Positions 1,321 through 23,426 of a stretch of DNA of 64,000 nucleotides are shown in pieces. Source of the DNA: an uncultured Anaerolineales bacterium. GTDB taxonomy: Bacteria > Chloroflexota > Anaerolineae > Anaerolineales > UBA11858. Below the pieces are notes generated by a model. The model was given only the letters and a program-made list of their open reading frames with translations, did not search any database and was not told the origin of the DNA. The translations under genes and the position numbers were made by a program. Where the stretch lies: NCBI GenBank assembly GCA_964613985.1, contig CAZTJD010000009.1, positions 859-64,858 of the forward strand, written 5' to 3'. The number at the start of each line of letters is the position of its first letter. Within the stretch, counting starts at the first letter, position 1.

Positions 1321-1338
1321 GTTAGATGAAAGAAAGAA

Positions 1339-5683: not shown

Positions 5684-5800
5684 CCCCCAAATATTGGACA
5701 TAATATACTCATTACTACTGTATGTGCACCTGTGGACACACGACAATCTGTATCTTAATCGTTAGGTTGAAGGTTCGGCGGCATACATGCCGAGTCACCT
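5684..5800 (+). repeat. Dispersed repeat, copy 1 (candidate attL; identity core 5753-5792)
   Basis: Core tcttaatcgttaggttgaaggttcggcggcatacatgccg is 39/40 identical to 23370-23409. The 70 nt to its left plus the first ~26 nt of the core are homologous to 56899-56990. Confidence 0.8.
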
Positions 5801-5831
5801 GCAGGGGTAATGCCGCAAGACTGTCATCTTG

Positions 5832-6064
5832 CTAACGGTAGAATGGGAAAATTATCCATTCTGCTGCTTTGTCTTGGTTATAGGTATCGACGTGGCTGAA
5901 AATATCCAAGTTGATAGAAAGCCTGTTGTGCCCCAATCGCTTGGAGACCACATTGAGACTGACACCATGGTTGAGCGTCAGTGATGCCATGGTATTCATC
6001 AGCTCGTAAAAGCGATTTCTTACTACCTTAGCATTCTCCCAATCCTGAAAAAATCCCTGTGAAG
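5832..6064 (-). pseudogene. Tyrosine recombinase (phage-type integrase) C-terminal relic
   Basis: Minus-strand translation: ...NRFYELMNTMASLTLNHGVSLNVVSKRLGHNRLSINLDIFSHVDTYNQDKAAEW...*. It matches the integrase C-terminal block (HDLRHT-x-AS...GV.L..VS.RLGHSSI.ITLD.YSHV). The H/R positions are replaced (YELMNT) and the catalytic Tyr is Phe (DIFSH). A TAA closes the frame upstream at about 6065. Confidence 0.65.
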
Positions 6065-6137
6065 GTTACTAGGATACACTGATGTTCAGAGAACAGAATA
6101 TTCTCGTGCAGTCTGCAAACGAGGGGTAAAAATCCTC

Positions 6138-6198
6138 TTGACTTCGATGTAGATATTTGCTACAATCCGGGAAACCGGTTGCGCAACCGGTTTCCCGG
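6138..6198 (+). promoter_or_regulatory. Promoter plus 32-bp perfect palindromic operator, copy A (duplicate of the lacI promoter)
   Basis: TTGACT (6138-6143), 17 nt, TACAAT (6161-6166), immediately followed by CCGGGAAACCGGTTGC|GCAACCGGTTTCCCGG (6167-6198). All 16 pairs verified. Confidence 0.7.
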
Positions 6199-6253
6199 TA
6201 CCTGTTTTTCTCATTATTTATCTGATAATCACTTTATCTTGGAAGGAGACGCT

Positions 6254-6435
6254 GTGCCCCGAGCGACGATCAGAGATGTAGCTGCCCTGGCCGGAGTTTC
6301 AAAGACGACGGTTTCTCATGTTATTAAAGAAACTCGCTTTGTCGAGGAAGATACGCGTCAAAAAAGTATTGCATGATATGGATAAATTTCAATACCGGCC
6401 GAATCCCGCCGCGCGGAGCTTAACGACCAAGCGAA
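6254..6435 (+). pseudogene. LacI-family regulator N-terminal (HTH) relic, decayed duplicate of 10914-11095
   Basis: [39 protein letters not shown], then a 1-nt insertion in an A-run shifts the frame (stop at 6374-6376). Nucleotide homology to the intact lacI continues to about 6435. Confidence 0.85.
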
Positions 6436-6460
6436 GAAGAAACTCTTCATTCTGGAACGA

Positions 6461-6775
6461 ATGAACCCCGGCATGTGGGAGCACGCCATGTGGATGACGG
6501 GTTACGAGAAATTCTTTTCAGTGATGATCAATAACAAGAAGCTGTGCCATGCCATCATGAGCAAGATCCTAGAGATCAAACGGGAGTACGGCAAGGATCT
6601 GACGATATGGGGTGGTAGTTGTGATTCACAAAGAGTAATACCTTATTGTACTCCGCAAGAAGTTAGAGACGAAACCAGGCGCCGAATTGAAAACCTTGCT
6701 CCAGGAGGAGGATTTGTTTTTGCTCCAATCCATGTGATTCAGGGTCATGTACCACCCGAGAACATCGTAACCTAG
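6461..6775 (+). pseudogene. URO-D-like protein relic (N-terminus missing, internal deletion)
   Basis: The 104-aa ORF aligns to two separated parts of the intact paralog at 20785-21786. PGMWEHAMWMTGYEKFF... resembles ...RPFERLQFLRGTENLF..., and GKDLTIWGG...APGGGFVFAPIHVIQGHVPPENI resembles KGKVTFWGE...SSGGVIAHCEWGKDNSKENI. About 120 residues between them are missing. Confidence 0.7.
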
Positions 6776-6983
6776 TGGGATGCGCTTCAAGATTACGGCA
6801 ATAACTAAGGTAAGGAGGCACTGATGAATCAAGGGTTTTACATAGAGAACAGGTGTAGAATTGCTTCGGGATTAACAGATGGGCACATCATGCTGGCTGG
6901 ACTCAAGGGCAGTTGGAGCGTCTGAGGTTTTGAACTGCACCGTCAGATAGGGAGCACCTGCCCGGAAAGGATCTTTTTGCCTA

Positions 6984-8159
6984 ATGAAGATTTCTAATGT
7001 GTCTACAATAGCCGTCAGTCTTCCCTGGAAGTCTCCACCGTATTCCACGGAAATGGCCGGTACCAAGCGAGAGTGGGGCCGTAATATTCGCGGGTTCTCA
7101 TACATTCCCGATCTCACTCTCAGTTATGTAATCGTGACCGTTGAGACAGACGAAGGAATCATCGGAGTCGGTGAGGCCGCCACAGACATTGGTTTTTTCG
7201 GAGAGCCTCTCGAGGAGGTCAAGTACGCCATTGAGCGGTATTTTGGTCCAAAGCTCATAGGGAAAGATCCTTTCGACCGGGAGGAGATCCTGCACTTACT
7301 CGACTATCGCGGAAACACATGCGCCAGATCGGGTATTGATCTGGCTTTGCACGACCTTCTCGGCAAGGCTCTTGAAATACCGATTTACGACCTTATTGGG
7401 GGTTGCTGCCGGGACCGGGTGCTTGTCGCCATCGAAATAGCAGGCGGAACGCCGGATGGGATGGCCAAACTCTGTGCGGAATATGTTGAACAAGGGGTGA
7501 GGGCTTTCAAACCCAAGATAGGAGGTTATCCTGATGAAGATGCCATCAGGCTGAAGGCAATCCGGGAAGCCGTTGGTGAGGGGATCTCTATCAGGGCCGA
7601 TGCCAACCAGGGATATACTCCAAAAGAAGCCATCAGACTGTGCCGGCTGGCAGAAAAATACGATGTCGGACTAGAATTGCTTGAACAGCCGGTGCCTGCC
7701 TGGGACCTGGATGGAATGGCTCTGGTTAGAAAATCCGTCGACACTTTGATCGAGGCAGACGAGAGCGCCTACAGCACTCATGATGTTATGAATATCATCC
7801 GGCAGGGCGCGGCTGATGTGATTAATATCAAGGTAGCCAAGGCTGGGGGACTTTACAACGCCAAGAAAATCGCCGCTCTGGCAGAGGCGGCGGGTCTTGG
7901 CTGCGTTTTGGGGACGGCCTTTGGTTTGGGGCTCAAAGTTGCGGCAAAACTGCACCTGGCAGCGTCGACCCGAAACATCATAGATGCGGTCGAGTTCACC
8001 GAGATCATTCTTCATGACAACCTGGCTGAACCCCCGTTTGACCAGGTGTTTACGCTGCCCCTTGAGGACGGTTATTTGCATGTTCCGACAGGACCTGGTC
8101 TCGGGGTCCAACTCGATGAAACCAAAGTGGAACGATACATGATAGATGCTATAAGATAA
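6984..8159 (+). CDS. Enolase-superfamily enzyme, MLE subgroup (dipeptide/amino-acid-derivative epimerase or racemase-like)
   Basis: 391 aa. KxK motif (FKPKIGG), metal-ligand blocks IRADANQGY / LEQPV / EADES, and the second catalytic Lys in DVINIKVAKAGG. Confidence 0.75.
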   Translation: MKISNVSTIAVSLPWKSPPYSTEMAGTKREWGRNIRGFSYIPDLTLSYVIVTVETDEGIIGVGEAATDIGFFGEPLEEVKYAIERYFGPKLIGKDPFDREEILHLLDYRGNTCARSGIDLALHDLLGKALEIPIYDLIGGCCRDRVLVAIEIAGGTPDGMAKLCAEYVEQGVRAFKPKIGGYPDEDAIRLKAIREAVGEGISIRADANQGYTPKEAIRLCRLAEKYDVGLELLEQPVPAWDLDGMALVRKSVDTLIEADESAYSTHDVMNIIRQGAADVINIKVAKAGGLYNAKKIAALAEAAGLGCVLGTAFGLGLKVAAKLHLAASTRNIIDAVEFTEIILHDNLAEPPFDQVFTLPLEDGYLHVPTGPGLGVQLDETKVERYMIDAIR

Positions 8160-8171
8160 GGAAAAAATGAA

Positions 8172-9212
8172 ATGGAACTACTGAGGGTTTTAAGCAATAC
8201 ACCAGGCGTGTCTGGATTTGAGGATCCGGTTCAACTGGTCATTAAGGCTGAACTTGAGCCGGTCTGCGACAGCGTGCACGTTGACAAGATCGGTAATGTC
8301 ATCGGGTTTAAAAGAGGTGTCCACACTGAGCAGAGCTCGATACCGCTAAAAGTGATGCTAGCCGCACACATGGACGAGATCGGCTTTATGGTCAAGCATA
8401 TCGATTGCGACGGCTTTGTGCGCTTTATGCCTATCGGTGGCTTCGACCCCCGGACGCTGGTTGCGCAGCGTGTAATCATTCATGGTCGACAGGATGTCAA
8501 AGGGGTGATTGCACCACAGCCAAATTGGATCATGAGTGACAAAGACCGGCAAAAAGTACTGGATATCAAGGAGCTTATTATTGATACCGGGATGGACAGG
8601 GAAACGATCTCGAACCTGGTCTCCATTGGTGATGTCATCAGTCTGTCACAATCTTTTGACGAGATGAATGACAATGTGGTTATTGGCAGGAACTTTGACG
8701 ACCGCGTTGGCGTGTACGCGATGCTCGAAGCGATGAAACGTATCAACGAGTGCCAGGTAGATGTCTATGCGGTTGCTACGGTGCAGGAGGAAGTTGGTCT
8801 GCGCGGTGTGCCCACTGCAGCCTATGCGATTGAGCCTGATGTGGGTATCGCGCTTGATGGCAGCCTGGCGTCTGACGTCCCCTATGCCAAAGAGGAGGAA
8901 AAACACTGCATCATGGGGGCCGGTACAGGGATCTATGCTATGGATAATCTTACAATCAGCGACCGCAAGTTGTTTCAATTTTTGCTGCAGCTCGCCCAGA
9001 AGGAGGGGATTAAGACCCAGATCAATCTGGGCGGTGGTACGGATGCCTCGATCATTCAGCGGCACAGAACAGGAGCGAGGGTGTGCACGATTGGTCCACC
9101 GACACGGTATATGCATTCGACGGTTCAAATGTGTAGCGTGGAGGACATCGAGAGCACAATTAAACTGTTGGTGGCTTTTTTACATAATGCCCACAAAGGA
9201 GAATTTAGATGA
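8172..9212 (+). CDS. M42-family aminopeptidase (FrvX/YpdE/PepA-like)
   Basis: 346 aa. N-terminal LLRVLSNTPGVSGFE, HMDEIGF, ATVQEEVGLRG and GGGTDA blocks typical of M42 metallopeptidases. Confidence 0.85.
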   Translation: MELLRVLSNTPGVSGFEDPVQLVIKAELEPVCDSVHVDKIGNVIGFKRGVHTEQSSIPLKVMLAAHMDEIGFMVKHIDCDGFVRFMPIGGFDPRTLVAQRVIIHGRQDVKGVIAPQPNWIMSDKDRQKVLDIKELIIDTGMDRETISNLVSIGDVISLSQSFDEMNDNVVIGRNFDDRVGVYAMLEAMKRINECQVDVYAVATVQEEVGLRGVPTAAYAIEPDVGIALDGSLASDVPYAKEEEKHCIMGAGTGIYAMDNLTISDRKLFQFLLQLAQKEGIKTQINLGGGTDASIIQRHRTGARVCTIGPPTRYMHSTVQMCSVEDIESTIKLLVAFLHNAHKGEFR

Positions 9213-10558
9213 ATGCAATGTACCAATCAGATTTTACAAAAGGGGAATTTCAAACTCGAAGGGAAAAAGTATACCAGGCAATTGGCTCCCAGGCCGTGGC
9301 TTTAATCCAAGGTTCTGCCAAAAATCCCGGTCATGCTGTTTTTCGGCAGAACAATGATTTTTATTATCTCTGTGGCGTAGAAACACCGCATGCCTATCTC
9401 TTCTTAGATGGCATAAACCAGACCAGCACGCTCTTTCTTGCCCATCAAAGCAAAGCACAGTTGGAGACTGAAGGCGAGATTCTTTCGGCAGAGAATGCCG
9501 GTCTTGTCCAGGAACTAACGGGTATCGATCAAGTATTGGGGATCGAATTCCTGGCCCAGTACCTGGAGAATGTACGTATTCTTTATACGCCAATGCGTCA
9601 GGGTGAAAGGGAAAAGATGAGTAGCGATACCTTACGACGGGCGCAGCAAGAGATTTTTTCAGATCCCTGGGACGGTCGCTTGGACCGGATGCGACACTTC
9701 GTCTCAAAGTTACATGAACGCTATCCTATGGCCGAAATCCGAGACCTGAGTCCGACGCTGGACGATCTGCGGCTGATCAAGAGTGAACAGGAATTGGCGT
9801 TGCTGCGTAAGGCCGGCAAATTGAGCGCACTTGGCACCATCGAGGCCATGCGTTCAACAAGGCCAGACGTCATCGAATATCAGCTTGATGCTGCGATGCG
9901 CTATCACTATTTGATCAATGGGGCGCGAGATGCTGGGTACAACGCCATCGTTGCTGGTGGTGACAATGCCTGGTATGGGCATTACAGCGCCAACAACTGC
10001 CCTTTGCTGGATGGCGATCTGGTGCTGGTCGATTGTGCACCCGATTACCATTATTACACTAGCGACATTGGTCGGATGTGGCCGGTAAACGGGCATTACT
10101 CGTCTTTGCAACGAGAGTTGTATGGCTTTATAGTCAAATATCACAAGGTCCTTTTGAATCTAATCCGCCCAGGATTCACAGATACGTGGATCCTACAAAG
10201 AGCTGCTGCTGAGATGCTTAATGTTATTGAAAACACCGAGTTTTCGAAGGAGGTCTATGAGGCAGCGGCGCGGCGGGCACTCGAGTTTCCTTATCACATG
10301 TCGCACTGTGTAGGAATGGCCGTGCATGATGTTGGACATTATCGAGGCAAAGAACTTAAACCTGGTATGGTCTTTGCGGTTGATCCAATGATGTGGATTC
10401 CCGAGGAACGACTCTACATCCGAGTAGAAGATACGGTGACGGTCACGGAGGAAGGGATAGAAAACTTTACTTCTGATGCCCCTCTAGAGCTGAGTGATGT
10501 TGAAGCGCTCATGAGAGAGTCTGGTATCCTTGATCGGTTTCCAGTTCTGTCCGACTGA
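9209..10558 (+). CDS. M24B-family Xaa-Pro aminopeptidase / prolidase-like
   Basis: 449 aa. Creatinase-type N-domain plus pita-bread motifs DCAPDYHYYTSDIGR, HCVGMAVHDVG and IRVEDTVTVTEEG. ATGA start/stop overlap with the M42 gene. Confidence 0.85.
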   Translation: MNAMYQSDFTKGEFQTRREKVYQAIGSQAVALIQGSAKNPGHAVFRQNNDFYYLCGVETPHAYLFLDGINQTSTLFLAHQSKAQLETEGEILSAENAGLVQELTGIDQVLGIEFLAQYLENVRILYTPMRQGEREKMSSDTLRRAQQEIFSDPWDGRLDRMRHFVSKLHERYPMAEIRDLSPTLDDLRLIKSEQELALLRKAGKLSALGTIEAMRSTRPDVIEYQLDAAMRYHYLINGARDAGYNAIVAGGDNAWYGHYSANNCPLLDGDLVLVDCAPDYHYYTSDIGRMWPVNGHYSSLQRELYGFIVKYHKVLLNLIRPGFTDTWILQRAAAEMLNVIENTEFSKEVYEAAARRALEFPYHMSHCVGMAVHDVGHYRGKELKPGMVFAVDPMMWIPEERLYIRVEDTVTVTEEGIENFTSDAPLELSDVEALMRESGILDRFPVLSD

Positions 10559-10797
10559 TGGAAAGGCGGTTCATTCACCGCTCACACGAATTCCATGGCC
10601 CAGGCCCGGGCAAATAACATTATAAAATCTATTTTGGATTCGAGGCTTATTGGTCACCCAATTAAAAATCTCTTTACAACCTAATAATTCCCCGGTGGAC
10701 AGAATCGAATGCAAGGATTGGCTGGTCTATATTGATTTATCGGTATTCGGCAAACAGAGAATACTCGAGCAGTCTGCATACGTAGGTATAAATCATC

Positions 10798-10858
10798 TTG
10801 ACTATGATGTGGATATTTGCTACAATTTAGGAAACCGGTTGCGCAACCGGTTTCCTAA
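10798..10858 (+). promoter_or_regulatory. lacI promoter plus 32-bp perfect palindromic operator, copy B
   Basis: TTGACT (10798-10803), 17 nt, TACAAT (10821-10826), immediately followed by TTAGGAAACCGGTTGC|GCAACCGGTTTCCTAA (10827-10858). All 16 pairs verified. Confidence 0.75.
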
Positions 10859-10913
10859 GGCAAATTTATCTGATTATTTAGCATTCACACAATTCATCTT
10901 ATAAGGAGGCGCT

Positions 10914-11924
10914 GTGCCCCGAGCGACGATCAAAGATGTAGCTGCCCTGGCCGGAGTTTCAAAGACGACAGTTTCTCATGTTATTAACGAAACTCGCTTT
11001 GTCGAGGGAGATACGCGCCAAAAAGTATTGCAGGCTATTGATGAACTTCAATACCGGCCGAATGCCGCCGCTCGCAGCTTAACAACCAAGCGAACCGGGA
11101 CAATCGGGATGCTTATCTCTGACGCGTCTAACCCATTTTTTGGAGAAATTCTGCTTAGCGTTGAAGAGATCCTTCGTCCTAAAGATTATGCATTAATTAT
11201 CTGTAATACAACCGAAACTCTGGAGTATGAGGCTCATTATCTCGACCTGCTCTTAGGTCAACGAGTCGATGGAATAATTGCAGCAGCTACCAGCCAACCT
11301 TGGATCGAGCTATCCAAAGCGGAAATACAGCATACCCCTGTTGTTTTTGTAGATCGCGCTTTTGATAATTTTGATGGTTTTTATGTTGGTGTGGATAACC
11401 AAGCCGGTGCTTATATGGGTACTCAGCACCTGATCCAATGTGGCTATCATAAAATAGGCGTTTTGGCTGGTTTAGAGCGCCTATCCACTATGCGAAAACG
11501 CCTGGATGGATATTGTCGAGCTCTGAAAGATGCCAATATTCCACTCAACCGTCAATGGATTATTCCATCTCAACTAAGTATTGATGGAGGCCGGCAAGCG
11601 TTTAGGACGCTCTTTAGCCTGGGGGATAAACCTGATGCAGTCTTTATAAACAACAATCTATTGGCGTTGGGTGCTTTGTTGGAAATGGCAGAGCTCAATA
11701 TAGATTGTATAATAGATCTGGGAATTGTCGTTTTTGATGATCATCCATGGGCGGCAGTTACAAATCCTCCACTCACGGTCGTAAGGCAGCCGACTCATAA
11801 AATTGGTCAAACTGCTGCCGAGATGATCCTGGCACTTATCAATAATCAACCAGTGGCAGAAAAGCGTGTAATTCTTGAGTGTGAATTGATCGTGCGCCAA
11901 TCTTGTTTATCCTTGCAAAGCTAA
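10914..11924 (+). CDS. LacI-family transcriptional regulator
   Basis: 336 aa, GTG start after [42 protein letters not shown] hinge, and a type-1 PBP effector domain. Confidence 0.9.
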   Translation: MPRATIKDVAALAGVSKTTVSHVINETRFVEGDTRQKVLQAIDELQYRPNAAARSLTTKRTGTIGMLISDASNPFFGEILLSVEEILRPKDYALIICNTTETLEYEAHYLDLLLGQRVDGIIAAATSQPWIELSKAEIQHTPVVFVDRAFDNFDGFYVGVDNQAGAYMGTQHLIQCGYHKIGVLAGLERLSTMRKRLDGYCRALKDANIPLNRQWIIPSQLSIDGGRQAFRTLFSLGDKPDAVFINNNLLALGALLEMAELNIDCIIDLGIVVFDDHPWAAVTNPPLTVVRQPTHKIGQTAAEMILALINNQPVAEKRVILECELIVRQSCLSLQS

Positions 11925-11948
11925 TTCATAAATCAAAACGAAGAAATC

Positions 11949-12050
11949 ATGGATTATACAAGCAACGAACGTGTTTTAGCCGCCCTGCAGCACAAAGAAT
12001 CCAACCGAGTACACATAATCGAGCGGAAAGAGCAGGAAAAAGAATGCTGA
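11949..12050 (+). pseudogene. 33-codon remnant resembling the N-terminus of a URO-D-like protein
   Basis: MDYTSNERVLAALQHKESNRVH... resembles the N-terminus of the intact paralogs (MTGRERVKAALTFTAPDRTP...). It ends at TGA 12048-12050, overlapping the permease ATG at 12044. Confidence 0.4.
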
Positions 12051-12967
12051 ATTATATTCTCAAGCGCTTCGCAATGATGCTGATCACCCTATTCATCATT
12101 ATCACGGCTACTTTCTTCCTCATGCGAGCAATACCGGGAGGCCCGTTCTCCTTTGACCGGGTGCTTCCACCCAGCGTAGAAGAAGCCCTTGAAGCAAAAT
12201 ATAACCTCGATAAACCCGTCATTGAGCAGTATTTTGATTATCTTCTCGGAATAATCCGATTCGATTTCGGCCCATCGTATGTCTACTTCGGTCAGACGGT
12301 GAACGAAATGATGGCGGATGGCTGGCCTGCTTCTGCCACATTGGGCGCCGCCGCTACTATCCTCATTATTCTGCTGGGACTGCCAATGGGCATTGTGGCG
12401 GCGCTCAACCGCAATAAACCTGCGGATCGCATTGCCATGGTCATATCGACCGTTGGGGTGGTTGTGCCCTCCTTTGTGATGGCAACGTTTCTACTCTACT
12501 TCTTTTCGATAAAAGTGGAGTTATTTCCCACATTCGGTGTGGAAAGCTACCGGGGTTATATACTGCCGGCGATCTGTCTTGCGATCGGGCCGGTGTGTGG
12601 CATTGCCAGACTGGCACGTTCCAGCATGCTGGATACACTCAGCCAGGATTATATGCGCACAGCCGAATCAAAAGGACTGTCCCGCTCCAGGATTATCATC
12701 GTACACGGGCTGCGCAATTCGCTCATTCCGGTTACGACATCTCTGGGCATGATATTTGCCGCCATGCTTTCCGGTACTTTTGTAATTGAGAAAATATTTG
12801 CCGTGCCCGGATTGGGTAGATATTTCGTCTTCTCGATCACAAACCGCGATTATACTGCCGTGATGGGTCTGACAATCCTTTCTTCCGTCATTATGGTCGT
12901 TGCAGTTTTTCTCATTGACATCATTTATTTGCTCATCGACCCGCGCATCAAGCTCTATGAAAAGTAG
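12044..12967 (+). CDS. Opp/Dpp-type ABC permease (DppB-like)
   Basis: MLNYILKRFAMMLITLF start typical of the family. 6-TM BPD_transp_1 pattern (YMRTAESKGLS motif). The ORF opens at 11903, but ATG 12044 follows a purine-rich RBS. Confidence 0.85.
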   Translation: MLNYILKRFAMMLITLFIIITATFFLMRAIPGGPFSFDRVLPPSVEEALEAKYNLDKPVIEQYFDYLLGIIRFDFGPSYVYFGQTVNEMMADGWPASATLGAAATILIILLGLPMGIVAALNRNKPADRIAMVISTVGVVVPSFVMATFLLYFFSIKVELFPTFGVESYRGYILPAICLAIGPVCGIARLARSSMLDTLSQDYMRTAESKGLSRSRIIIVHGLRNSLIPVTTSLGMIFAAMLSGTFVIEKIFAVPGLGRYFVFSITNRDYTAVMGLTILSSVIMVVAVFLIDIIYLLIDPRIKLYEK

Positions 12968-12983
12968 GAGAAAAGCAACCGTT

Positions 12984-14156: not shown

Positions 14157-14167
14157 GGACGCTTTGA

Positions 14168-16295: not shown

Positions 16296-18041
16296 ATGAA
16301 AAAGCTCATTACATTTCTAGTAACATCGCTCGTTTTATTGTTACTGCTGATAGGTTGTGCACCGCAGCCGACGCAGTCTATTCAGGAAGATTTACCGCCG
16401 ACCGAGGCGCCCGCCGAACCCACCGAGGCACAGGCTGAACCCACCGAGGCGCCGGTTGAACCCACCGAAGCACCCATCGAACCCACAGAAGAACCCGCAG
16501 AACCAGAAGCCGTTCCTGCAGAGCCGGTAACTTTCCATTATGCTTTTCTGATCGAACCCCCGGGTATCGACCCCGGCGTTTCTCAGGGCAGCGTCCAGTC
16601 CACCCTTTATGCTGCACTCTATGAGGGGCTTGTGACGGTTGATGATAAAGGCAATATTGTTCCTGGGGCAGCGGAAAGCTGGGATGTTAGCGAGGATGGA
16701 ACTGAGTATACATTCCATCTAAGAGAAGGACTTAAGTGGTCTGATGGCGAACCGCTGACTGCTAAAGATTTCGAGTATTCCTGGCTACGCGCGCTGATGC
16801 CGGAAACTGCTTCAACCTATAGCTGGTTTGTCGAGATGTTTATATATAACAGTTCGGCGTTTGCGCAGGGTGAAGTTGGCGCTGAGGAAGTTGGCATCAA
16901 AGCCACGGATGATCTCACTTTGGAAGTCAAGCTCAATATGCCGGCGGCCTATTTCCCGCAAGCACTACTGGCTGGCGTCTGGAATCCCGTCCGCCAGGAT
17001 ATGGTCGAAGCTGATCCCGAAAAGTGGCCTTTTAATGCCGAAACTGCGATTTCGAACGGCCCCTTCAAGTTCACAGAGTACAAAATCGGATCCTACATCA
17101 CGGCTGTGAAAAATGAGAACTATTGGGATGCCGATTCCATCACGATCGATAATCTACGTTTCTCTTTCATCGCTGATGAAAATACGGCCTACAACGCCTT
17201 TATTGCAGGCGATGTCGATGGCATCGCAGGCGTTCCCAACACTGAACTGATTAATCTCCTGACCACTGATGACAGGCTGACCGCGTATGATCAACTCAGG
17301 ATCAACTTCCTGCGCCTAAACAACGAAACTCCCGGCCTGGACAACCAACAAGTCAGAAGGGCAATCAACCTGGCAATCGACCGGAAAAGCTATCTGGACG
17401 GTCTTGGCAACATCACCTCCAAGCCGATCTTGGGAGTAGTTCCCGGCGGACTTATCCTTGACGGTAAAGACTTCCGGGAAGTGTCCGGTGATAATGGGCT
17501 CACTGTAACTGCACAGGTTGAAGAAGCTCAGGCCTTGCTGGCCGATGCCGGTTATCCCAACGGTGAGGGTCTACCAGTCTACCGACTGCACACTTTTGAA
17601 AATTGGGCCAAAGATGCTGAGATTATTCAACAGATGCTGCTGGTCAACCTGGGTATCCAGACCGAAATCCAGTCAGTTGACTCCAAGCTCTTCTTCCCCA
17701 TGATTATTGATGGCGAGTACGATATCGCCTTCGGCGGCTGGGGCGGCGACTATGTTCACCCCATGACATTCTTCGATCTCTTCACCTCGACGGCTTACGA
17801 TAATGCCACCCGTTGGGCGAACCCCGAATACGACGATCTCATCAACCGGGCGCGTGTCGCCACCGATGAAGCGGTAGCGCTCGATTTGATGGTACAAGCC
17901 GAGAAAATCTTGATGGAAGAAAGCCCGATTGTGCCGTTGATTGTTCCTGCCAGTGCGATTATGATCCAGGATTATGTAACGAACTGGTTCATATCCCCGC
18001 TTGACACACTCTATATTTCCAGAGCAGTCGTCACCAAGTAA
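16296..18041 (+). CDS. Family-5 (Opp/Dpp-type) ABC substrate-binding lipoprotein
   Basis: MKKLITFLVTSLVLLLLLIGC lipobox, an EPTEAP-repeat linker, then an SBP_bac_5-like body. The ORF opens at 16248; ATG 16296 follows GGAGA. Confidence 0.85.
   Translation: MKKLITFLVTSLVLLLLLIGCAPQPTQSIQEDLPPTEAPAEPTEAQAEPTEAPVEPTEAPIEPTEEPAEPEAVPAEPVTFHYAFLIEPPGIDPGVSQGSVQSTLYAALYEGLVTVDDKGNIVPGAAESWDVSEDGTEYTFHLREGLKWSDGEPLTAKDFEYSWLRALMPETASTYSWFVEMFIYNSSAFAQGEVGAEEVGIKATDDLTLEVKLNMPAAYFPQALLAGVWNPVRQDMVEADPEKWPFNAETAISNGPFKFTEYKIGSYITAVKNENYWDADSITIDNLRFSFIADENTAYNAFIAGDVDGIAGVPNTELINLLTTDDRLTAYDQLRINFLRLNNETPGLDNQQVRRAINLAIDRKSYLDGLGNITSKPILGVVPGGLILDGKDFREVSGDNGLTVTAQVEEAQALLADAGYPNGEGLPVYRLHTFENWAKDAEIIQQMLLVNLGIQTEIQSVDSKLFFPMIIDGEYDIAFGGWGGDYVHPMTFFDLFTSTAYDNATRWANPEYDDLINRARVATDEAVALDLMVQAEKILMEESPIVPLIVPASAIMIQDYVTNWFISPLDTLYISRAVVTK
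16395..16527 (+). repeat. In-frame 21-nt tandem repeat (about 6 units) encoding the (E-P-T-E-A-P-x)n linker
   Basis: gaacccaccgaggc... units read directly. They translate to PTEAPAEPTEAQAEPTEAPVEPTEAPIEPTEEPAEPEAVPAEP. Confidence 0.85.
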
Positions 18042-18058
18042 CAATAATTGCATAGTTT

Positions 18059-18103
18059 GCGGTCGTCCCTGGTTACATAGGGGACGACCGCTATCATATT
18101 TTT
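18059..18103 (+). terminator. Rho-independent terminator after the Opp-type operon
   Basis: An 11-bp GC-rich stem gcggtcgtccc / gggacgaccgc with a 10-11 nt loop, followed by tatcatattttt. Confidence 0.8.
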
Positions 18104-18123
18104 AAAAGGAAAAAGGATATGCT

Positions 18124-19143
18124 ATGCAGCAAGCAATAATGACCAACCCGGGGAACATTGAATTTCGTGAGATTCCGCGTCCAATACCCCAACCCGATGA
18201 AGTATTGATCCAGGTAAAACGTATCGGCGTGTGTGGTTCAGATATCCATGTCTACCACGGGCTGCACCCTTATACCAGTTATCCGGTTGTGCAAGGGCAT
18301 GAAGTTTCGGGGCTGGTCGCTGAGTTAGGTAAAGAAGTTAAAGGCTTTTCGCTGGGTGATAAAGTGGTCTTTATGCCCCAGGTGACCTGTGGCGAGTGTT
18401 ACCCTTGCCGGCATGGTTTATACCATATCTGCGATCACCTCAAGGTAATGGGCTTTCAAACCAACGGCGCGGCACAAGAATATTTTCCGGTCCCGGCCGA
18501 ATTGGTGTTGAAGCTGCCCGAGTCAATCTCAATCGATCAGGCCGCAATGATTGAGCCGATTTCAGTCGCAGTTCATGCCCTTGCACGGTATGGGAGCGTG
18601 GATGGCTTGAATGTCCTGGTGTTGGGAGCCGGAACGATCGGCAACCTAGAAGCTCAGGTTGCTATCGCAATGGGCGCCAAGGAAGTAATGATTACAGATA
18701 TCAGTGAATATAAGTTACAGAAAGCCCGTGAATGTGGCATTGAGCACGGGATCAACCCGCAGCAAGAGGATCTCAGCCATGCACTCTTGAATACCTTTGG
18801 GCCAGATAAGGCTGACTTGATTTTGGAATGCGTGGGGGTTCAGGATACTATCACTCAGGCAGTGGCGAATGCGCGTAAGGGCAGTACGATCATCGTTGTG
18901 GGTGTCTTTGGGAAGAAGCCAGTTGTCGATCTGGGTCTGGTGCAAGATCGTGAGTTAAATCTGATTGGAACATTGATGTATCAAAAGGCAGATTACGAGC
19001 ACGCGATCGAACTTGTCTCGCTTGGTAAGCTACGCCTGGATCCGATGATCACACACCGTTTCGTATTTGCAAATTATGTGCAAGCCTATGAAACGATCGA
19101 AACTTCTGACGGCAGGTATATCAAGGTCATGATTGACCTCTAG
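18124..19143 (+). CDS. Zn-dependent medium-chain dehydrogenase (sorbitol/threonine dehydrogenase-like)
   Basis: 339 aa. CGSDIH, GHEVSG, the structural-Zn cluster CGECYPCRHGLYHIC, and a GAGTIG Rossmann motif. Confidence 0.85.
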   Translation: MQQAIMTNPGNIEFREIPRPIPQPDEVLIQVKRIGVCGSDIHVYHGLHPYTSYPVVQGHEVSGLVAELGKEVKGFSLGDKVVFMPQVTCGECYPCRHGLYHICDHLKVMGFQTNGAAQEYFPVPAELVLKLPESISIDQAAMIEPISVAVHALARYGSVDGLNVLVLGAGTIGNLEAQVAIAMGAKEVMITDISEYKLQKARECGIEHGINPQQEDLSHALLNTFGPDKADLILECVGVQDTITQAVANARKGSTIIVVGVFGKKPVVDLGLVQDRELNLIGTLMYQKADYEHAIELVSLGKLRLDPMITHRFVFANYVQAYETIETSDGRYIKVMIDL

Positions 19144-19156
19144 GGAGAACCAAATT

Positions 19157-20323
19157 ATGAAATCCTTCACGTATTTCCAACCCACCGAACTTCGTTTTGG
19201 GAGCGGCCGGCTGGAAGAAACCGGTGAGGCCACTGCCAGGTTCGGCAAGCGCTGTTTGATCGTTTCAAGACCTGTCAATGCTGTATTCGAGCCAAGGATC
19301 GACCGGGTAAAGCGCAGCCTTATTAAGGCTGGCGTTGAATGTACCCATTTTGACGGCGTGGTACCCAACCCGACTACCGATTGCGTTACTGCCGGTGCAC
19401 AGCTGGCTAAGTTGCATAAAGCGGATGTTGTCTTGGGCGTTGGCGGAGGTTCCAGCATGGATACTGCCAAAGCAATTGCAGTCGAGGCGACTCATCCTGG
19501 CACTGCCTGGGATTACCTTTACTTCAAAACACCTCTGACCGGAAAAACCCTGCCCGTTATTGCTGTTCCGACCACTTCGGGTACTGGCTCACATGTTACT
19601 CAGGTCGCGGTGATGACCGAGACCAAGACCAAGACCAAATCAGCCATCTATAATGCCAGTATCTATCCGAAAATTGCCATCGTTGACCCAGATTTGATGG
19701 AGACGCTGCCGCCCCATATCACCGCTTCTACTGGATTCGATGTATTTTGCCATGCCTTTGAAAGTTATATACATATCAACGGCACACCCTACACCGATTA
19801 TCTGGCACTTGAGGCGATCCGGCTGGTAGCCGAAAACCTTACTGTTGTAGTTAAGGACGGTGCCAATCAAGCAGCTCGCACGAAAATGGCCTGGGCGGAT
19901 ACGCTTGCAGGATTGTGCATTGCCAATGCAGGTGTGACCCTACCACACGGCATCGGTATGACCATTGGCGGGCAATGTCCGCAGATCATGCATGGTGAAG
20001 CACTCGGGGTAGTTTACCCCCAATTCACACGCTTTACATACCCAACAGCAGTGGAAAAGTTCGCTGCTATGGGGCGCATTTTCGATCCGGCACTCATTAA
20101 CCAGCCGGATGATGTAGCCGCCGAACAATCATGTGAATTGCTGGATGATCTGCTCAAGAAGATCGGCATGTGGCTGGGGTTGAAGGCTCTGGGCGCTTCG
20201 GAAACAGATGTGGTCGCGATTGCCGATCACAGCCATGTGCTGCCGGATTACAAAAACAATCCGCGTATCGCCAGCCGGGACGAAATCTACGAGATGTTGA
20301 TGGCGAGTTACGAACGCGTCTGA
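19157..20323 (+). CDS. Iron-containing (group III) alcohol dehydrogenase
   Basis: GVGGGSSMDTAKA, PTTSGTGS, and His-rich metal blocks (FCHAFESY, LPHGIGM). ATG 19157 follows GGGAGA; the ORF opens at 19133. Confidence 0.85.
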   Translation: MKSFTYFQPTELRFGSGRLEETGEATARFGKRCLIVSRPVNAVFEPRIDRVKRSLIKAGVECTHFDGVVPNPTTDCVTAGAQLAKLHKADVVLGVGGGSSMDTAKAIAVEATHPGTAWDYLYFKTPLTGKTLPVIAVPTTSGTGSHVTQVAVMTETKTKTKSAIYNASIYPKIAIVDPDLMETLPPHITASTGFDVFCHAFESYIHINGTPYTDYLALEAIRLVAENLTVVVKDGANQAARTKMAWADTLAGLCIANAGVTLPHGIGMTIGGQCPQIMHGEALGVVYPQFTRFTYPTAVEKFAAMGRIFDPALINQPDDVAAEQSCELLDDLLKKIGMWLGLKALGASETDVVAIADHSHVLPDYKNNPRIASRDEIYEMLMASYERV

Positions 20324-20343
20324 CCCTGGAGAGCAACTGATCC

Positions 20344-20764
20344 ATGAAATCAAAACTGATTCACCCGTCGTTGATCCAGGTGTTGGCAGCGGCTGGACCT
20401 GGCGAGGAAAGTCCTGATTTCGGCCAGTAATTTTGCCTTTTAGACCAATTTCAATCCCACTGCCGAGCGTATTCATCTGAACCTGATGCCAGATTGTGAG
20501 ACCGTCCCACAGGTGCTAGAAGCAGTTACCTCCGCTGTACTGATTGAAGCGGTTGAGGTGATGAGGGCCGACGCTAGCACGGAACCGGCCATCTGGGCAG
20601 ATTTTCGCCAACTGTTGTAAGGGTTTGAATTGCGAGCCAATGAGCGCTGTGCATTTTACGAACTGGCGCTTGAACGTCAAAGTTGCGTGGCGATTGCAAC
20701 CGGTGACACGCGCCTGTATGCCAATATATTGCTTAGCGTGGGATTTATCTCAAAATCCTTGTAA
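20344..20764 (+). pseudogene. fucU: RbsD/FucU-family sugar mutarotase pseudogene
   Basis: MKSKLIHPSLIQVLAAAGPGE.. (GHGD has become GPGE). A 1-nt frameshift is followed by KVLISASNFAF*TNFNP...FRQLL*GFELRANERCAFYELA...TGDTRLYANILLSVGF. One frameshift and two in-frame stops (TAG, TAA) interrupt an otherwise FucU-like sequence. Confidence 0.8.
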
Positions 20765-20784
20765 ACGAAAGGGTACCTCTATTG

Positions 20785-21786
20785 ATGACGGGACGTGAAC
20801 GAGTAAAAGCCGCGTTAACTTTCACAGCTCCAGACCGCACGCCGCGAGACCTCTGGGCGCTGCCTTACATCAGGCTGTTTCGAAAAAATGAACTGGTTGA
20901 AGTGCTTCAAGAATTCCCATTGGATATCCAGAATCGTGAGCTAAACCCTGGTTGGGATGATAAAGTTATAAATGCTTATGGCCAAACTGGACATTATACT
21001 GATGACTGGGGAAGTGTTTGGTATATCGGGGAACCGGGGATTATTGGCGAAGTCAAAGAACCGGTATTGGAAAACTGGTTCGATCTGAAGACATATAAAC
21101 CACCGTGGGATTTGGTTCGCAAGCGGGATTTATCCAATGTAAATCAGATGTGCGACGAGAGTGACCAATTTATGCTCTCCGATGTAACGGCTCGCCCTTT
21201 TGAACGTTTACAATTCCTGCGTGGAACAGAGAACTTATTCATTGACATTGCTTACGGTACAGCCGAAGTACGCACCTTACTTGAGATAGTGCATGAATTC
21301 TATCTGGAAGATATTCGTGCTTGGTGTGAATCTAACGTTGATGCTATTTTTTTTATGGATGATTGGGGAACCAACAACTCGCTCCTCATCAATCCAAAGA
21401 CTTGGCGAGAGTTATTCAAACCCCTTTACAAAGAATATTGTAATCTAATTCATGCAGCAGGTAAGTTTGCCTTTTTCCACACTGATGGCAACATCGAGGC
21501 AATTTTTGGTGATCTCATTGAGGTCGGGATTGACGCCATAAATTCTCAACTTTTCTGCATGGACATTGAAGGACTAGCCCGCTTATATAAGGGAAAAGTC
21601 ACGTTTTGGGGCGAGATTGACCGACAAAATGTATTACCTTTTGGTGACTTGAATGCGGTTCGCGAAGCGGTAATGCGCGTGCGACGTGTTTTAGACGACA
21701 GTTCAGGTGGTGTCATCGCGCATTGTGAATGGGGAAAAGACAACTCCAAGGAAAATATAAGAACTGTGTTCAAAACATGGCTCTAA
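20785..21786 (+). CDS. Uroporphyrinogen-decarboxylase-fold (URO-D-like) protein of unknown function
   Basis: About 333 aa. N-terminal RERVKAALTFTAPDRTP and the C-terminal FHTDGN...WGE blocks fit the URO-D/MtaA-like fold family. It lacks the HemE N-terminal substrate motif. Confidence 0.65.
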   Translation: MTGRERVKAALTFTAPDRTPRDLWALPYIRLFRKNELVEVLQEFPLDIQNRELNPGWDDKVINAYGQTGHYTDDWGSVWYIGEPGIIGEVKEPVLENWFDLKTYKPPWDLVRKRDLSNVNQMCDESDQFMLSDVTARPFERLQFLRGTENLFIDIAYGTAEVRTLLEIVHEFYLEDIRAWCESNVDAIFFMDDWGTNNSLLINPKTWRELFKPLYKEYCNLIHAAGKFAFFHTDGNIEAIFGDLIEVGIDAINSQLFCMDIEGLARLYKGKVTFWGEIDRQNVLPFGDLNAVREAVMRVRRVLDDSSGGVIAHCEWGKDNSKENIRTVFKTWL

Positions 21787-21873
21787 TTAGTCAATTATAA
21801 ATTGCATCAGATATTTGGTAAAACCTTGTGAGCATGCTGTTGTTATCAAGATTACAAGAGGAGACGTTTTTTA

Positions 21874-22857
21874 ATGAATGAGGTAAATTACAGAGATTGT
21901 ATGAAAACGGCTTTAGAAGGAGGAAAGCCGGAAAATGTTGTTCCACTTTGGGAAATCCACTTCCATTGTTGGGATCAGGTCGCGGGTAGGGAGATCGTAA
22001 TTGGGCGCAAATTCGAGGCCCTATCAACATCTGATCAGGCAAAAGCAATTGAGACGAATGCCCAATTAATGGCTGAAGCTGCCGAATCCCTGCACTTTGC
22101 ATCGATCACTATTCCAGATGGTTTTTGGGAGACGGCTCCTGGTACCCCCTCATATTATTGGCTGCCATCAGAAGCCAGGTATAAATTGGCTGAGCAGCTT
22201 TATCAACTCGTCGGCGGCAGAATCATGATTATAGCAAGTGTTGGTGGCGTTATGGGTATGCCTGACCCGGCTGACTACGTCGATTTTTGTTATAAACTGG
22301 TGGATGCACCTGATGAAGTTGATGTTATTGCACAACGAAGGTACATCAATGGTATCGAAACTGCGAAAAAGATGCGCGATGTGGGGGTGGAAGCTGTTTA
22401 TTCAGCTGGGGACTTAGCCGATAATCACGGCCCATTCTTCAAACCTGAATATATGAAACGTTTTGTGCTCCCATATCTACAAAGATGGGCAAGCGAAATA
22501 AAAACCATGGGTTTGTATGCTATTTTACACACAGATGGCATGATAAACCCGATTCTAGAAGATCTGATAACCAGCGGAATCCATGCTTTGCAAGCCATCG
22601 ATCCTGTTGCGGGGATGGATATTAGAAAAGTAAAGGAGCAGGTTGACTCTAGGATATGTCTCTGTGGAAACATCGACTGTGGATTGCTATATACTGGACC
22701 GGAAGAGGAAATTTACAAAACATCGCGAAATTTGTTGTTGGATTTAAAATCTGATGGGGCATATGTTTTTGGAGCATCAAACGCTGTGCACTACGAGACA
22801 CCTATCAATCACTACATGGCTTTGATTCGAGCTTGGGAACAGTATGGAACCACATGA
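21874..22857 (+). CDS. Second, divergent URO-D-like protein of unknown function
   Basis: 327 aa. Same fold signature (LHTDGMINPILEDLITSGIHALQAIDP, ICLCGNID). AGAGGAG RBS. Confidence 0.6.
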   Translation: MNEVNYRDCMKTALEGGKPENVVPLWEIHFHCWDQVAGREIVIGRKFEALSTSDQAKAIETNAQLMAEAAESLHFASITIPDGFWETAPGTPSYYWLPSEARYKLAEQLYQLVGGRIMIIASVGGVMGMPDPADYVDFCYKLVDAPDEVDVIAQRRYINGIETAKKMRDVGVEAVYSAGDLADNHGPFFKPEYMKRFVLPYLQRWASEIKTMGLYAILHTDGMINPILEDLITSGIHALQAIDPVAGMDIRKVKEQVDSRICLCGNIDCGLLYTGPEEEIYKTSRNLLLDLKSDGAYVFGASNAVHYETPINHYMALIRAWEQYGTT

Positions 22858-22892
22858 TCAAAGGAAGAATTCTAATTATGTAGAAGTTACGC

Positions 22893-23080
22893 ATTTGTTG
22901 GGTAATGGTGGGGACTAGCATGGACACGGCCAAAGCGATTGCAGTAGAAGTCACCCATCCAGGAACAGCTCGGGATTATTTGTTTTTCAAGAAACAACCA
23001 ACAACGAAGACTCTACCGCTCATTGCTGTAACAACGACTTCGGGAACGGGTTCGCAGGTCACCCAAGTAGTTGTTATACC
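22893..23080 (+). pseudogene. Fe-alcohol-dehydrogenase internal fragment (relic of a second paralog)
   Basis: ..SMDTAKAIAVEVTHPGTARDYLFFKKQPTTKTLPLIAVTTTSGTGSQVTQV aligns to residues of the intact gene at 19157-20323 (SMDTAKAIAVEATHPGTAWDYLYF...PTTSGTGSHVTQV). There are no N- or C-terminal parts. Confidence 0.8.
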
Positions 23081-23189
23081 TGATGCTGCTTTCGTTGCGT
23101 CTGACCGAAGGGAGCAAGCCAATCCGCTCATAGTAGCGCAGCGCATTCGCTGAAAGTCCAGACCGTTCACTGGCTTCCGAAATTTTCAT
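23076..23189 (-). pseudogene. MerR-family regulator N-terminal HTH fragment
   Basis: Minus-strand ATG 23189: MKISEASERSGLSANALRYYERIGLLPSVRRNESS... is the canonical MerR wing-helix start. Homology stops where it runs into the antisense of the ADH fragment. The 57-codon ORF is below the track cutoff. Confidence 0.6.
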
Positions 23190-23369
23190 GGAGCACCTCC
23201 ATCGATAAGTGCACCACCTGGAGTCGACTCCAGGTCAAGGGGTTTTGAGGAAATATGGCGAATAACTGTGAAATTTACCTGCACGCTTGCAGCCAGAACT
23301 ACCCGGTTATCCAAACCCTCTCATCACCGGGGATTTTCGTCCTCAGTTTTAATCTATGCACGAAACGAC

Positions 23370-23426
23370 TCTTAATCGTTAGATTGAAGGTTCGGCGGCA
23401 TACATGCCGTGTCCTTCCGGGGTCAC
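23370..23426 (+). repeat. Dispersed repeat, copy 2 (candidate attR; identity core 23370-23409)
   Basis: tcttaatcgttagattgaaggttcggcggcatacatgccg is 39/40 identical to 5753-5792 in the same orientation. Its right flank (tccttccggggtcacct) resembles the right flank of copy 3. Confidence 0.8.

Follow-up and report, generated by a model that had tools for sequence, protein, structure and literature searches.

The 17.7-kb catabolic block that lies between two copies of a 40-nt direct repeat in this stretch of DNA (64,000 nucleotides from an uncultured Anaerolineales bacterium, which we call the window) probably sits inside the dead shell of an integrated element, itself part of a tandem stack at a tRNA-Lys-type attachment site. 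The initial annotation had proposed a decayed integrated island. From that proposal we keep the att-type scars, the integrase relic and the anatomy of a dead element, but we abandon a third repeat copy as an attB, the gene relics at the edges as integration debris, and the block as demonstrated cargo. Table 1 gives the features.

Table 1. Features of the repeats, the block and its flanks, with positions in the window.
Feature	Position	Strand	Remarks
Left flank, putative cargo of neighbouring element X	1..5576	+	Pfam; GC 40%
IS21 IstB	99-842		Pfam; the window begins in an IS21
Sugar-type ABC transporter	1432-4598		Pfam
BD-FAE esterase	4611-5576		Pfam
Element-type arm (P arm), putative right end of element X	5600..5752	+	TAGAC/TGGAC motifs
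Repeat copy 1	5753..5792	+	tRNA-Lys(CUU) part 5753-5777, then 15-nt hairpin GCGGCATACATGCCG
Degenerate tRNA 3′ end AGTCACCTGCAGGGGTAA	5793..5810	+	Directly 3′ of copy 1
Tyrosine integrase, C-terminal relic	5832..6064	-	Convergent on copy 1; stop codon 40 nt from the repeat
Duplicated promoter/operator and lacI 5′ end (lacI′)	6092..6435	+	Palindrome 6170-6195; 85% identical to 10753-11094
LacI N-terminus fragment	6179-6376		4e-12
Window-specific segment with URO-D-like C-terminal fragment	6436..6982	+	Fragment 6461-6775, Pfam URO-D 8.7e-8
Operon: enolase-superfamily epimerase, M42 peptidase, M24 aminopeptidase	6984..10558	+	Pfam
lacI, OppBCDF and family-5 solute-binding protein, Zn-ADH, Fe-ADH, two URO-D-family genes	10753..22857	+	Pfam
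Truncated second Fe-ADH copy (Fe-ADH′, pseudogene)	22905..23084	+	77% amino-acid identity to block Fe-ADH
Fe-ADH piece, Pfam match	22905-23153		1e-15
MerR-family N-terminal relic and 20-nt palindromic operator-like site	23013..23235	-	Relic 23013-23189, Pfam MerR 4e-14; palindrome 23216-23235
Repeat copy 2	23366..23427	+	tRNA-Lys 23366-23394, same 15-nt hairpin, tRNA 3′ end 23411-23427
Repeat copy 3	56815..57012	+	Copy-1-subtype arm, then decayed tRNA-Lys 3′ part without insert

The repeats and the tRNA-Lys(CUU) gene

The two 40-mers (5753-5792 and 23370-23409) lie on the same strand with a single mismatch (39/40), and their identity stretches to 44 nt at 95%. No such repeat is expected by chance (0 in 100 shuffles). 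The core of the repeat belongs to the Anaerolineae tRNA-Lys(CUU) gene and extends from its anticodon loop into its T-loop. In copy 1, the tRNA part begins at base two of the anticodon loop and stops at base four of the T-loop, 25 nt that match Anaerolineae tRNA-Lys(CUU) at 100%. In copy 2, it starts at the end of the anticodon stem and reaches into the T-loop (tRNA positions 30-58, 29 nt at 96.6%), and the match resumes at positions 60-76 (17 nt, 100%), such that the copy ends in a perfect tRNA 3′ end plus CC. Copy 2 is oriented as copy 1, as the displaced tRNA fragment of the Islander definition is. The sequence agreement supports both 40-mers as att-type scars, displaced 3′ parts of tRNA-Lys(CUU).

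In both copies, the fourth T-loop base is followed by a 15-nt perfect hairpin, and a pseudo-tRNA at another locus (L017) has a 57-nt insert at the same T-loop position. One crossover alone cannot account for the 15-nt insert that both repeats have. Directly after copy 1, about 13 bases match the tRNA 3′ end AGTCCTTCCGGGGTCA with a 2-nt indel (by eye; an automatic alignment favours another register), and this degenerate end may be the half of the att site that came from the element. Neither ARAGORN nor Rfam finds a tRNA in the 64-kb window. Upstream of copy 1, where an Islander-type island would have its intact target tRNA, there is an element arm and not a tRNA 5′ half.

We searched the 22-nt core of the repeat against 185,579 species genomes. 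It matches 81 loci, mostly in Anaerolineae, and these are intact tRNA-Lys(CUU) genes, one to a genome, barring the L017 pseudo-tRNA, one fragment (L018) and six matches cut by contig ends. Each locus has one core match; one MAG has two of them, on separate contigs. The initial annotation had called for a search for further copies of the 40-mer, and the result leaves no room for a REP- or MITE-like family, since in these collections, which do not include this genome, the motif is a tRNA-Lys(CUU) gene or fragment. Three copies inside 64 kb could have suggested a dispersed repeat with no relation to island borders. But the core is tRNA-Lys(CUU) sequence that occurs once per locus, the insert-bearing form of the 40-mer is absent from IMG/VR and from all loci that we fetched, and all three copies in the window share one orientation. 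We consider that reading to have practically no chance of being correct and, as far as these collections can show, we rule it out.

The integrase relic and the element arms

The integrase relic falls below the Pfam cut-off for Phage_integrase (E=0.017) and matches PHROG integrase families at 9.8e-7 and 3.4e-4. About 60-77 C-terminal residues are all that is left, and they align with the C-terminus of an intact 413-aa integrase (L042). Compared to that protein, the relic retains LGH, its Tyr has become Phe (DIFSH vs. DIYGH), and the Arg of HxLR has become Met. At L042, the intact integrase converges on an intact tRNA-Lys(CUU), which is the layout seen at copy 1. These alignments and the PHROG match support the relic of a tyrosine integrase just inward of the left repeat, with the catalytic Tyr now Phe, as the initial annotation had it.

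The third, more diverged copy of the repeat is also present, with its core TCTTAATCGTCAGGTCGAAGGT at 56966-56987 and a left flank (56876-56941) that has 73% identity to 5663-5728, left of copy 1. It had been taken for an unoccupied paralogous attB (B-O-B′), with bacterial DNA on its left. By its homologies, however, the left flank of copies 1 and 3 is a conserved element arm and not host DNA, and therefore copy 3 is not an unoccupied attB. Besides the copy 3 flank, homologues of the copy 1 arm are found in L093 (88% over 34 nt) and in the ATAGAC-repeat arms of L018 and L088-L092. These last six loci all have the same order: cargo on the left, then the arm, the tRNA from position 30, its perfect 3′ end and a terminator, that is, the right end of an island. 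In L018 the cargo consists of an ars operon, and in L089 of an ADP-ribosylglycohydrolase-like gene (named from sequence, no Pfam check) together with a ribokinase-like gene. For L088, both ends of an island of ~9 kb are present, and L093 joins the copy-1 arm subtype to a normal tRNA 3′ half. Copy 3 matches the reference of tRNA plus downstream sequence at 40/51 positions, and a metagenome contig (L087) carries an identical sequence; we read it as an old, decayed right-end junction. Left of copy 2, the arm family of copies 1 and 3 is absent.

Composition and relatives of the block

The left flank is compositionally foreign, with a GC of 40% and a GC3 of 31-42%. Its TETRA correlation with the block is 0.07, and that between the block and the right flank is 0.5. 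We interpret the left flank as the cargo of a more recently acquired neighbour, element X, whose arm and copy 1 are inside the window and whose integrase end is outside. The block, in contrast, matches the right flank in GC (48.6% vs. 48.7%), GC3 and tetranucleotide usage, a host-like composition, and relatives carry it without an att site or integrase. It does not look like the foreign cargo of the Islander definition. Right-flank homology to the nearest relative of that flank (L084, 78% amino-acid identity) starts at 23444, and synteny with it (OppCDF-TMEM260-FtsX-GH42-ATPase) reaches to within 17 nt of copy 2, counted from the 3′ end of that copy; no tRNA was found at the corresponding site of L084.

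The gene fragments first described at the two edges (lacI-N, a URO-D piece, an Fe-ADH piece and a MerR N-terminus) are all confirmed by Pfam. As debris of the integration, however, the lacI and Fe-ADH relics do not hold, as relatives of the block with 85-95% nucleotide identity have both. In L094-L097, the same truncated lacI′ abuts the enolase gene, and it continues to the enolase start; the URO-D-like segment that separates them here (6436..6982) is absent, and its fragment has only 30% identity to the block URO-D1. L104, in which lacI and Zn-ADH are missing, shares 85-90% nucleotide identity with the region 10753..22857. Both L099 and L104 have a longer version of the second Fe-ADH copy, and the homology to them stops near 23003-23068.

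Homology to relatives ends at ~6092-6123, on the side of the truncated integrase, and at ~23003-23068, on the side of the truncated merR, and for this reason the block may not be the original cargo. The enolase module is also found alone in other contexts (L098, L101). Within ~9 kb of the block, on the left in L094 or on the right in L104, there is no tRNA fragment or integrase. This counts against the claim that the whole LacI/peptidase/Opp/dehydrogenase/URO-D locus is cargo, since the block without repeats or integrase in relatives is what the initial annotation had named beforehand as evidence against it.

Competing histories

The most probable history, in our view, is one in which tyrosine-integrase elements recombined with the anticodon-loop region of the tRNA and left displaced 3′ tRNA scars, which would be the 40-mers. 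Copy 1 with its convergent integrase relic would be the left junction of an element Y (5793-23369), and copy 2, leading into the perfect tRNA 3′ end, would be the right junction. Element Y would be immobile because its integrase consists of C-terminal residues only, with the catalytic Tyr and an Arg replaced. Directly left of copy 1 would be the right-end arm of the second, low-GC element X, so that copy 1 would be the junction between two stacked elements, and the intact tRNA 5′ half would be outside the window or lost. The order of the integrations and the anticodon-loop crossover are what we infer from this layout, and the catabolic block would be the cargo of Y, trimmed by two later deletions cutting into the integrase and merR.

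It is unlikely, though worth serious consideration, that shell and filling are of different origin. Illegitimate recombination would then have put 17 kb of catabolic DNA from the host lineage into a small element (from the integrase to merR) between tRNA-Lys fragments, either in place of its interior or in addition to it, and the integrase would never have delivered this DNA. The four sequences at the joints are indeed all truncated (the integrase without its N-terminus, merR without its C-terminus, Fe-ADH′ and the lacI′ unit), Fe-ADH′ is shorter than its counterparts in L099 and L104, and at the joints the homology to relatives stops. The composition of the block equals that of the conserved right flank, and relatives have the block amid other catabolic genes, away from any att site or integrase. 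But two illegitimate joints would be required in one place, and two ordinary deletions in a larger island give the same picture. Moreover, the enolase module adjoins integrase and IS genes in another genome too (L100, L101), and the modules of the block are shuffled among relatives, as expected for mobile accessory DNA.

We find it improbable that the 40-mers mark no single element at all, and that they stem from separately decayed elements, or from gene conversion or a short duplication, with ordinary chromosome in between. The common 15-nt insert and a 39/40 identity that drops abruptly on the right do suggest copying between repeats and not one crossover, copy 2 has no arm of the family on its left, and the block composition is host-like. 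Yet the order and orientation fit one element (a tRNA fragment, a convergent integrase, and a fragment with the true tRNA 3′ end), the L084 synteny breaks at copy 2, and all DNA to the left of a tRNA 3′ end that has been displaced must, by definition, have been inserted relative to the ancestral tRNA gene. A slimmer chance still goes to the insert-bearing tRNA-Lys fragment being itself a specific attachment site. The 15-nt hairpin and the 57-nt insert of L017 would then jointly mark a second, T-loop-directed recombination activity, or an integrase lineage whose target is no longer the live tRNA gene but a dead fragment of one, and island after island could accumulate while the working tRNA stays undisrupted.

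In the Anaerolineae, which are known mainly through MAGs, the tRNA-Lys(CUU) gene is a hot spot at which integration recurs. Six of the MAG contigs are cut off within this tRNA, probably due to island integration there. The conserved arm (ATAGAC repeats, then the anticodon loop) is a usable marker for mapping the ends of islands in Anaerolineae MAGs. Beyond the hot spot and the arm, what we describe is ordinary mobile-element decay. And for annotation there is a warning: the boundary of an island shell is no proof that the genes it encloses were cargo.

Comparison with known systems

The source of the Islander definition (PMC4383910) describes how a target is regenerated and a fragment displaced, and it describes tandem arrays as well; the crossover proposed here would fall in the anticodon-loop sublocation class of Williams 2002, as cited in PMC4383910. 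At their far end, Islander-type tRNA/tmRNA islands have, as here, a 3′ piece of the tRNA, displaced and in direct orientation, and an integrase (here its relic) adjoins and converges on the tRNA-side junction; tRNA identity from the anticodon loop and tandem stacking are documented too. Here, unlike in those islands, the left end lacks an intact tRNA, and the integrase is a relic of 60-77 residues. A working tRNA cannot be rebuilt from the restoring tRNA part, given its 15-nt insert and its degenerate 3′ end. The block between the repeats has a native composition, and relatives have it too, outside any island that can be recognised.

Anaerolineales metagenomes also have ATAGAC-arm islands at tRNA-Lys(CUU) (L018, L088-L093), which share with copies 1 and 3 an arm of ~100-150 nt and a junction at the anticodon loop, and whose cargo consists, as it would here, of metabolic or resistance genes. 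There, the arm is followed by a perfect tRNA 3′ half that has no insert, and then by a terminator, whereas copy 1 leads into the insert, the degenerate 3′ end and the integrase relic, and copy 3 is decayed.

In the same phylum, Dehalococcoides (Chloroflexi) has tandem genomic islands specific to ssrA (PMC3146451), several of them in a stack downstream of a single small-RNA gene. A short direct repeat of the 3′ end of that gene borders each island, with a conserved element motif just upstream of each repeat and the integration genes at the left edge, and some members lack an integrase and are fixed in the chromosome. Their target is the tmRNA (T-loop), with a serine recombinase and a 20-bp repeat, whereas here it is tRNA-Lys(CUU), with a tyrosine recombinase and a 40-60 nt repeat from the anticodon loop.

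Repeat copies and their tRNA identity

The 40-mer TCTTAATCGTTAGGTTGAAGGTTCGGCGGCATACATGCCG of copy 1 occurs again in copy 2 on the same strand with one mismatch, a kind of match absent from 100 shuffles of the sequence, and the two copies can be extended to 44 nt at 95% identity. Copy 3 has a 22-nt core, and its left flank is 73% identical to that of copy 1. The direct repeat and its third copy are thus as the initial annotation described them.

When the repeat core TCTTAATCGTNAGNTNGAAGGT is scanned against 185,579 species, one genome each, it matches 81 loci, with one match per locus. Except for a pseudo-tRNA (L017), a fragment (L018), and six matches cut by contig ends, the context is GGCCC(C/T)GTAGCTCAATTTGGCAGAGCAAGCGAC-[motif]-TCGAGTCCTTCC(A/G)GGGTCA, that is, an intact tRNA-Lys gene with anticodon CUU. 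These genes are found mostly in Anaerolineae and other Chloroflexota. Since the motif is embedded in tRNA-Lys(CUU) genes, the repeat corresponds to the stretch from the second anticodon-loop base to the fourth T-loop base. A REP- or MITE-like family, against which a search for further genomic copies had been proposed, is excluded as far as the species genomes scanned show: the core is part of a tRNA gene, matched once per locus.

The tRNA match of copy 2 runs from the end of the anticodon stem to the T-loop and, past a hairpin insert, resumes as a perfect match to the gene's final 17 nt plus CC. The tRNA 3′ end to the right of copy 1, AGTCACCTGCAGGGGTAA, is degenerate, and copy 3 is a decayed but otherwise normal tRNA-Lys 3′ part without the hairpin (40/51 reference positions match). 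Neither ARAGORN nor Rfam reports a tRNA in the window, and no known RNA is found around copy 1 by ARAGORN or by Rfam, at the gathering threshold or at E<=10.

Variable positions with a period of three had made the repeat look protein-coding, a reading overruled by the tRNA identification. Copies 1 and 3 had also been taken for tRNA-like small-RNA genes, with compensatory changes in the acceptor stem that appeared, by eye, to covary. This idea was dropped because the homologues show the upstream part to be an element arm and copy 3 to be a decayed normal 3′ half.

Six MAG contigs (L015, L028, L037, L052, L055, and L067) stop inside tRNA-Lys(CUU), at about position 20-25. Assemblers break contigs at repeated sequence, and these ends suggest that duplicated tRNA-Lys 3′ halves, and hence islands, are common in these Chloroflexota.

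Features of the window, with positions numbered within it
Feature	Position	Strand	Remark
Low-GC left flank	1-5750		ends in element arm at copy 1
IS21 IstB gene	99-842		starts the left flank
Sugar-type ABC transporter and BD-FAE esterase	within 1-5750		low-GC left flank
Copy 1, 40-mer	5753-5792		hairpin insert at 5778-5792
Tyrosine integrase C-terminal relic	5832-6064	minus	reading frame ends 40 nt from copy 1
Promoter and lacI′ unit	6092-6435		palindrome GGAAACCGGTTGCGCAACCGGTTTCC at 6170-6195; upstream of enolase operon
Promoter and true lacI 5′ unit	10753-11094		palindrome GGAAACCGGTTGCGCAACCGGTTTCC at 10830-10855; upstream of lacI-opp operon
20-nt palindrome ACCTGGAGTCGACTCCAGGT	23216-23235		just upstream of MerR N-terminal relic
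Copy 2, 40-mer	23370-23409		hairpin insert at 23395-23409
Copy 2, tRNA match	23366-23394		anticodon stem end to T-loop
Copy 2, tRNA 3′ end	23411-23427		perfect match
Right flank	23486-44503		gene order of L084
28-nt palindrome	27207-27250		imperfect, centered on GCGATCGATCGC
LacZ (GH2) genes	29370-32675; 34229-37609		extra relative to L084
TatA gene	56521-56712		left of copy 3
Copy 3, core	56966-56987		no hairpin
AT-rich stretch	57000-57950		directly right of copy 3

Element arms at copies 1 and 3

As junctions in metagenomes show, copies 1 and 3 are each preceded on the left by roughly 150 nt of an element arm rather than of host DNA. These junctions form a family, collected by scanning metagenomes for the arm joined to the tRNA core and by adding L018 from the genome scan. 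In L018 and L088-L092 the order is always the same: an arm with repeated ATAGAC, the tRNA from position 30, a perfect 3′ end, and a terminator. To the left lies cargo of metabolic or resistance genes, such as an ars operon in L018, or a putative ADP-ribosylglycohydrolase-like gene (named from sequence) with a ribokinase-like gene in L089. L088 holds a whole unit of about 9 kb (147-9211), with a pseudo-tRNA-Lys copy at one end and an arm-plus-tRNA-fragment copy at the other, containing an ABC-2 transporter and three transposase genes (by eye IS5-, IS256-, and IS1182-like) and no integrase. In L093 the copy-1 subtype of the arm is joined to a normal tRNA 3′ half. These junctions in L018 and L088-L092 are right ends (attR-type) of integrative elements, and since tRNA identity begins at position 30 throughout the family, we infer a crossover in the anticodon loop.

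Because the arm at copies 1 and 3 belongs to this family, copy 1 adjoins on its left the right end of another element, X. No other DNA of the window looks as foreign as this left flank, which is also the outlier in composition, with a GC content of 40%, a GC3 of 31-42%, and a tetranucleotide (TETRA) correlation with the block of 0.07. Copy 3 is an old right-end junction of the same kind. It had been proposed as an unoccupied attB, a proposal that fails since its left flank is element arm of the L018/L088-L092 family. BLAST against all fetched loci gave no match for either the left flank of copy 2 or the right flank of copy 1. The some 950 nt following copy 3 are ORF-poor (about 38% GC), with no integrase similarity detected.

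The integrase relic and the hairpin insert

The minus-strand frame beside copy 1, a relic of 77 residues, has Phage_integrase as its best Pfam match, a weak one (E=0.017), and matches the C-terminal ends of PHROG integrase families (9.8e-7 and 3.4e-4). It also aligns with the C-terminal end of a 413-aa tyrosine integrase that is intact in an Anaerolineales chromosome (L042): LGH is kept, Phe replaces the catalytic Tyr, and Met replaces the Arg of HxLR. In L042 that integrase and an intact tRNA-Lys(CUU) are arranged convergently, as are the relic and copy 1. The PHROG matches and this alignment confirm the recombinase relic, and the alignment shows its Tyr-to-Phe change. Many loci have weak similarities to the esterase and the enolase near tRNA-Lys; these were rejected as synteny with the window, for they are only about 30% identical, stand in a different order, and look like generic paralogues.

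Both 40-nt repeats carry a perfect 15-nt hairpin, GCGGCATACATGCCG, after the fourth T-loop base, and directly to its right the identity of copies 1 and 2 drops from 39/40 to about 70%. None of the tRNA genes in the 185,579-species scan carries this insert, and it is absent from copy 3, L093, all fetched loci, and IMG/VR, where scans for the insert-bearing repeat, for any 8-38 nt T-loop insert in tRNA-Lys(CUU), and for the arm-plus-core pattern all gave zero matches. The presence of the insert in both junctions cannot come from one tyrosine-recombinase exchange, unless it was there beforehand in target and element site alike, or the repeats were homogenized later. At the equivalent T-loop site of the L017 pseudo-tRNA-Lys (around the match, oriented position 1418) there is an insert of 57 nt, and after it the final 16 nt of the gene, AGTCCTTCCGGGGTCA, stand twice in tandem. 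These features hint at a distinct activity directed to the T-loop of tRNA-Lys(CUU).

The block and its surroundings

The right flank follows the gene order of a relative, L084 (OppC-OppD-OppF-TMEM260-FtsX-GH42-ATPase; ATPase 78% amino-acid identity). The two are homologous as far as 23444, which is 17 nt short of the tRNA-like end of copy 2. L084 has no tRNA in the matching intergenic region, where the score for a remnant is no better than that of shuffled sequence. The window has two LacZ genes that L084 lacks, and its FtsX-like permease gene contains an imperfect palindrome.

The block's composition had been described as similar to its surroundings. This is true of the right flank (GC 48.6% vs. 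48.7%; tetranucleotide correlation about 0.5, similar to those among right-flank segments) and not of the left. The nearest relatives are much closer for the block (enolase 96%, URO-D 96%) than for the flank (ATPase 79%). Other loci carry the block in other surroundings: L094-L097 at 95% nucleotide identity, L099 at 89%, and L104 at 85-90%. On their left, as in the window, the truncated lacI′ abuts the enolase gene, and beyond are a UvrD fragment, unknown genes, and FGE-sulfatases. On their right, a longer Fe-ADH′ pseudogene comes after URO-D2, and then TerB and fucose-utilization genes. Homology is lost precisely at the start of the two truncated genes, at about 6092-6123 for the integrase and at about 23003-23068 for merR. 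Within about 9 kb of the block, these relatives have neither a tRNA-Lys fragment nor an integrase on either side; the block without flanking repeats, which the initial annotation had set against its own island, is therefore what they have. The LacI, URO-D, Fe-ADH, and MerR gene fragments are all real, but lacI′ and Fe-ADH′ are not debris of integration: relatives without att scars also carry them, so both relics are older than the present arrangement of the window.

In more distant relatives (L098, L101, L102) the modules of the block are shuffled. One genome has an enolase-M42-M24 module (L100 6667-9069, L101 1923-4326; about 84% nucleotide identity, enolase 86% amino-acid identity), and at a distance of 2 kb from it a Phage_integrase fragment of 151 aa, an IS (HTH_32 and rve_3), and a PIN/DUF433 toxin-antitoxin pair. 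In L102 (1-17319) and L103 the Opp transporter, enolase, Zn-ADH, Fe-ADH, and URO-D recur reordered, with a sulfatase and an alpha-L-fucosidase, company that suggests that the block serves the breakdown of a sulfated or fucosylated substrate.

The promoter and the 5′ end of lacI are duplicated, and both units include a perfect 26-nt palindrome. The truncated copy with its palindrome is conserved in relatives at 95% nucleotide identity. Judging from sequence, the lacI′ unit probably places the enolase operon under the same LacI-family repressor as the lacI-opp operon; it looks like a duplication of a predicted operator that puts two operons under one repressor. The perfect palindrome at the MerR relic is probably an orphaned, predicted MerR-type operator.

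A probable dead element stacked beside another

The region has the anatomy of a dead integrative element, Y, which is stacked beside X at a tRNA-Lys-type att site. From left to right, the proposed stack comprises the X arm, the tRNA fragment of copy 1, the convergent integrase relic, about 17 kb of genes, the merR relic, copy 2 (a tRNA fragment with the true 3′ end), and the conserved chromosome. The island first proposed thus survives as a shell of att scars and a dead integrase, with several corrections, among them these: the repeat is a tRNA-Lys(CUU) fragment, and the elements form a tandem stack with no intact tRNA.

Was the block ever the cargo of Y? If so, two deletions would have shortened a larger island, one reaching from inside the integrase to the lacI′ unit, the other from inside Fe-ADH′ into merR. 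Alternatively, Y was a small element whose interior was replaced by DNA of the host lineage, as the host-like composition of the block and its att-free context in relatives would favor. We keep this alternative alive, but we give more weight to the trimmed larger island, since deletions are frequent events and relatives show the block to be clearly mobile. That the block was the cargo of Y is uncertain.

The region belongs to a well-known kind of system, that of integrative elements at tRNA genes. Reading the arm junctions as right ends accords with the Islander principle of tRNA-gene islands (PMC4383910), and the arm has a parallel in the conserved motif upstream of the ssrA repeats in the tandem ssrA islands of Dehalococcoides (PMC3146451).
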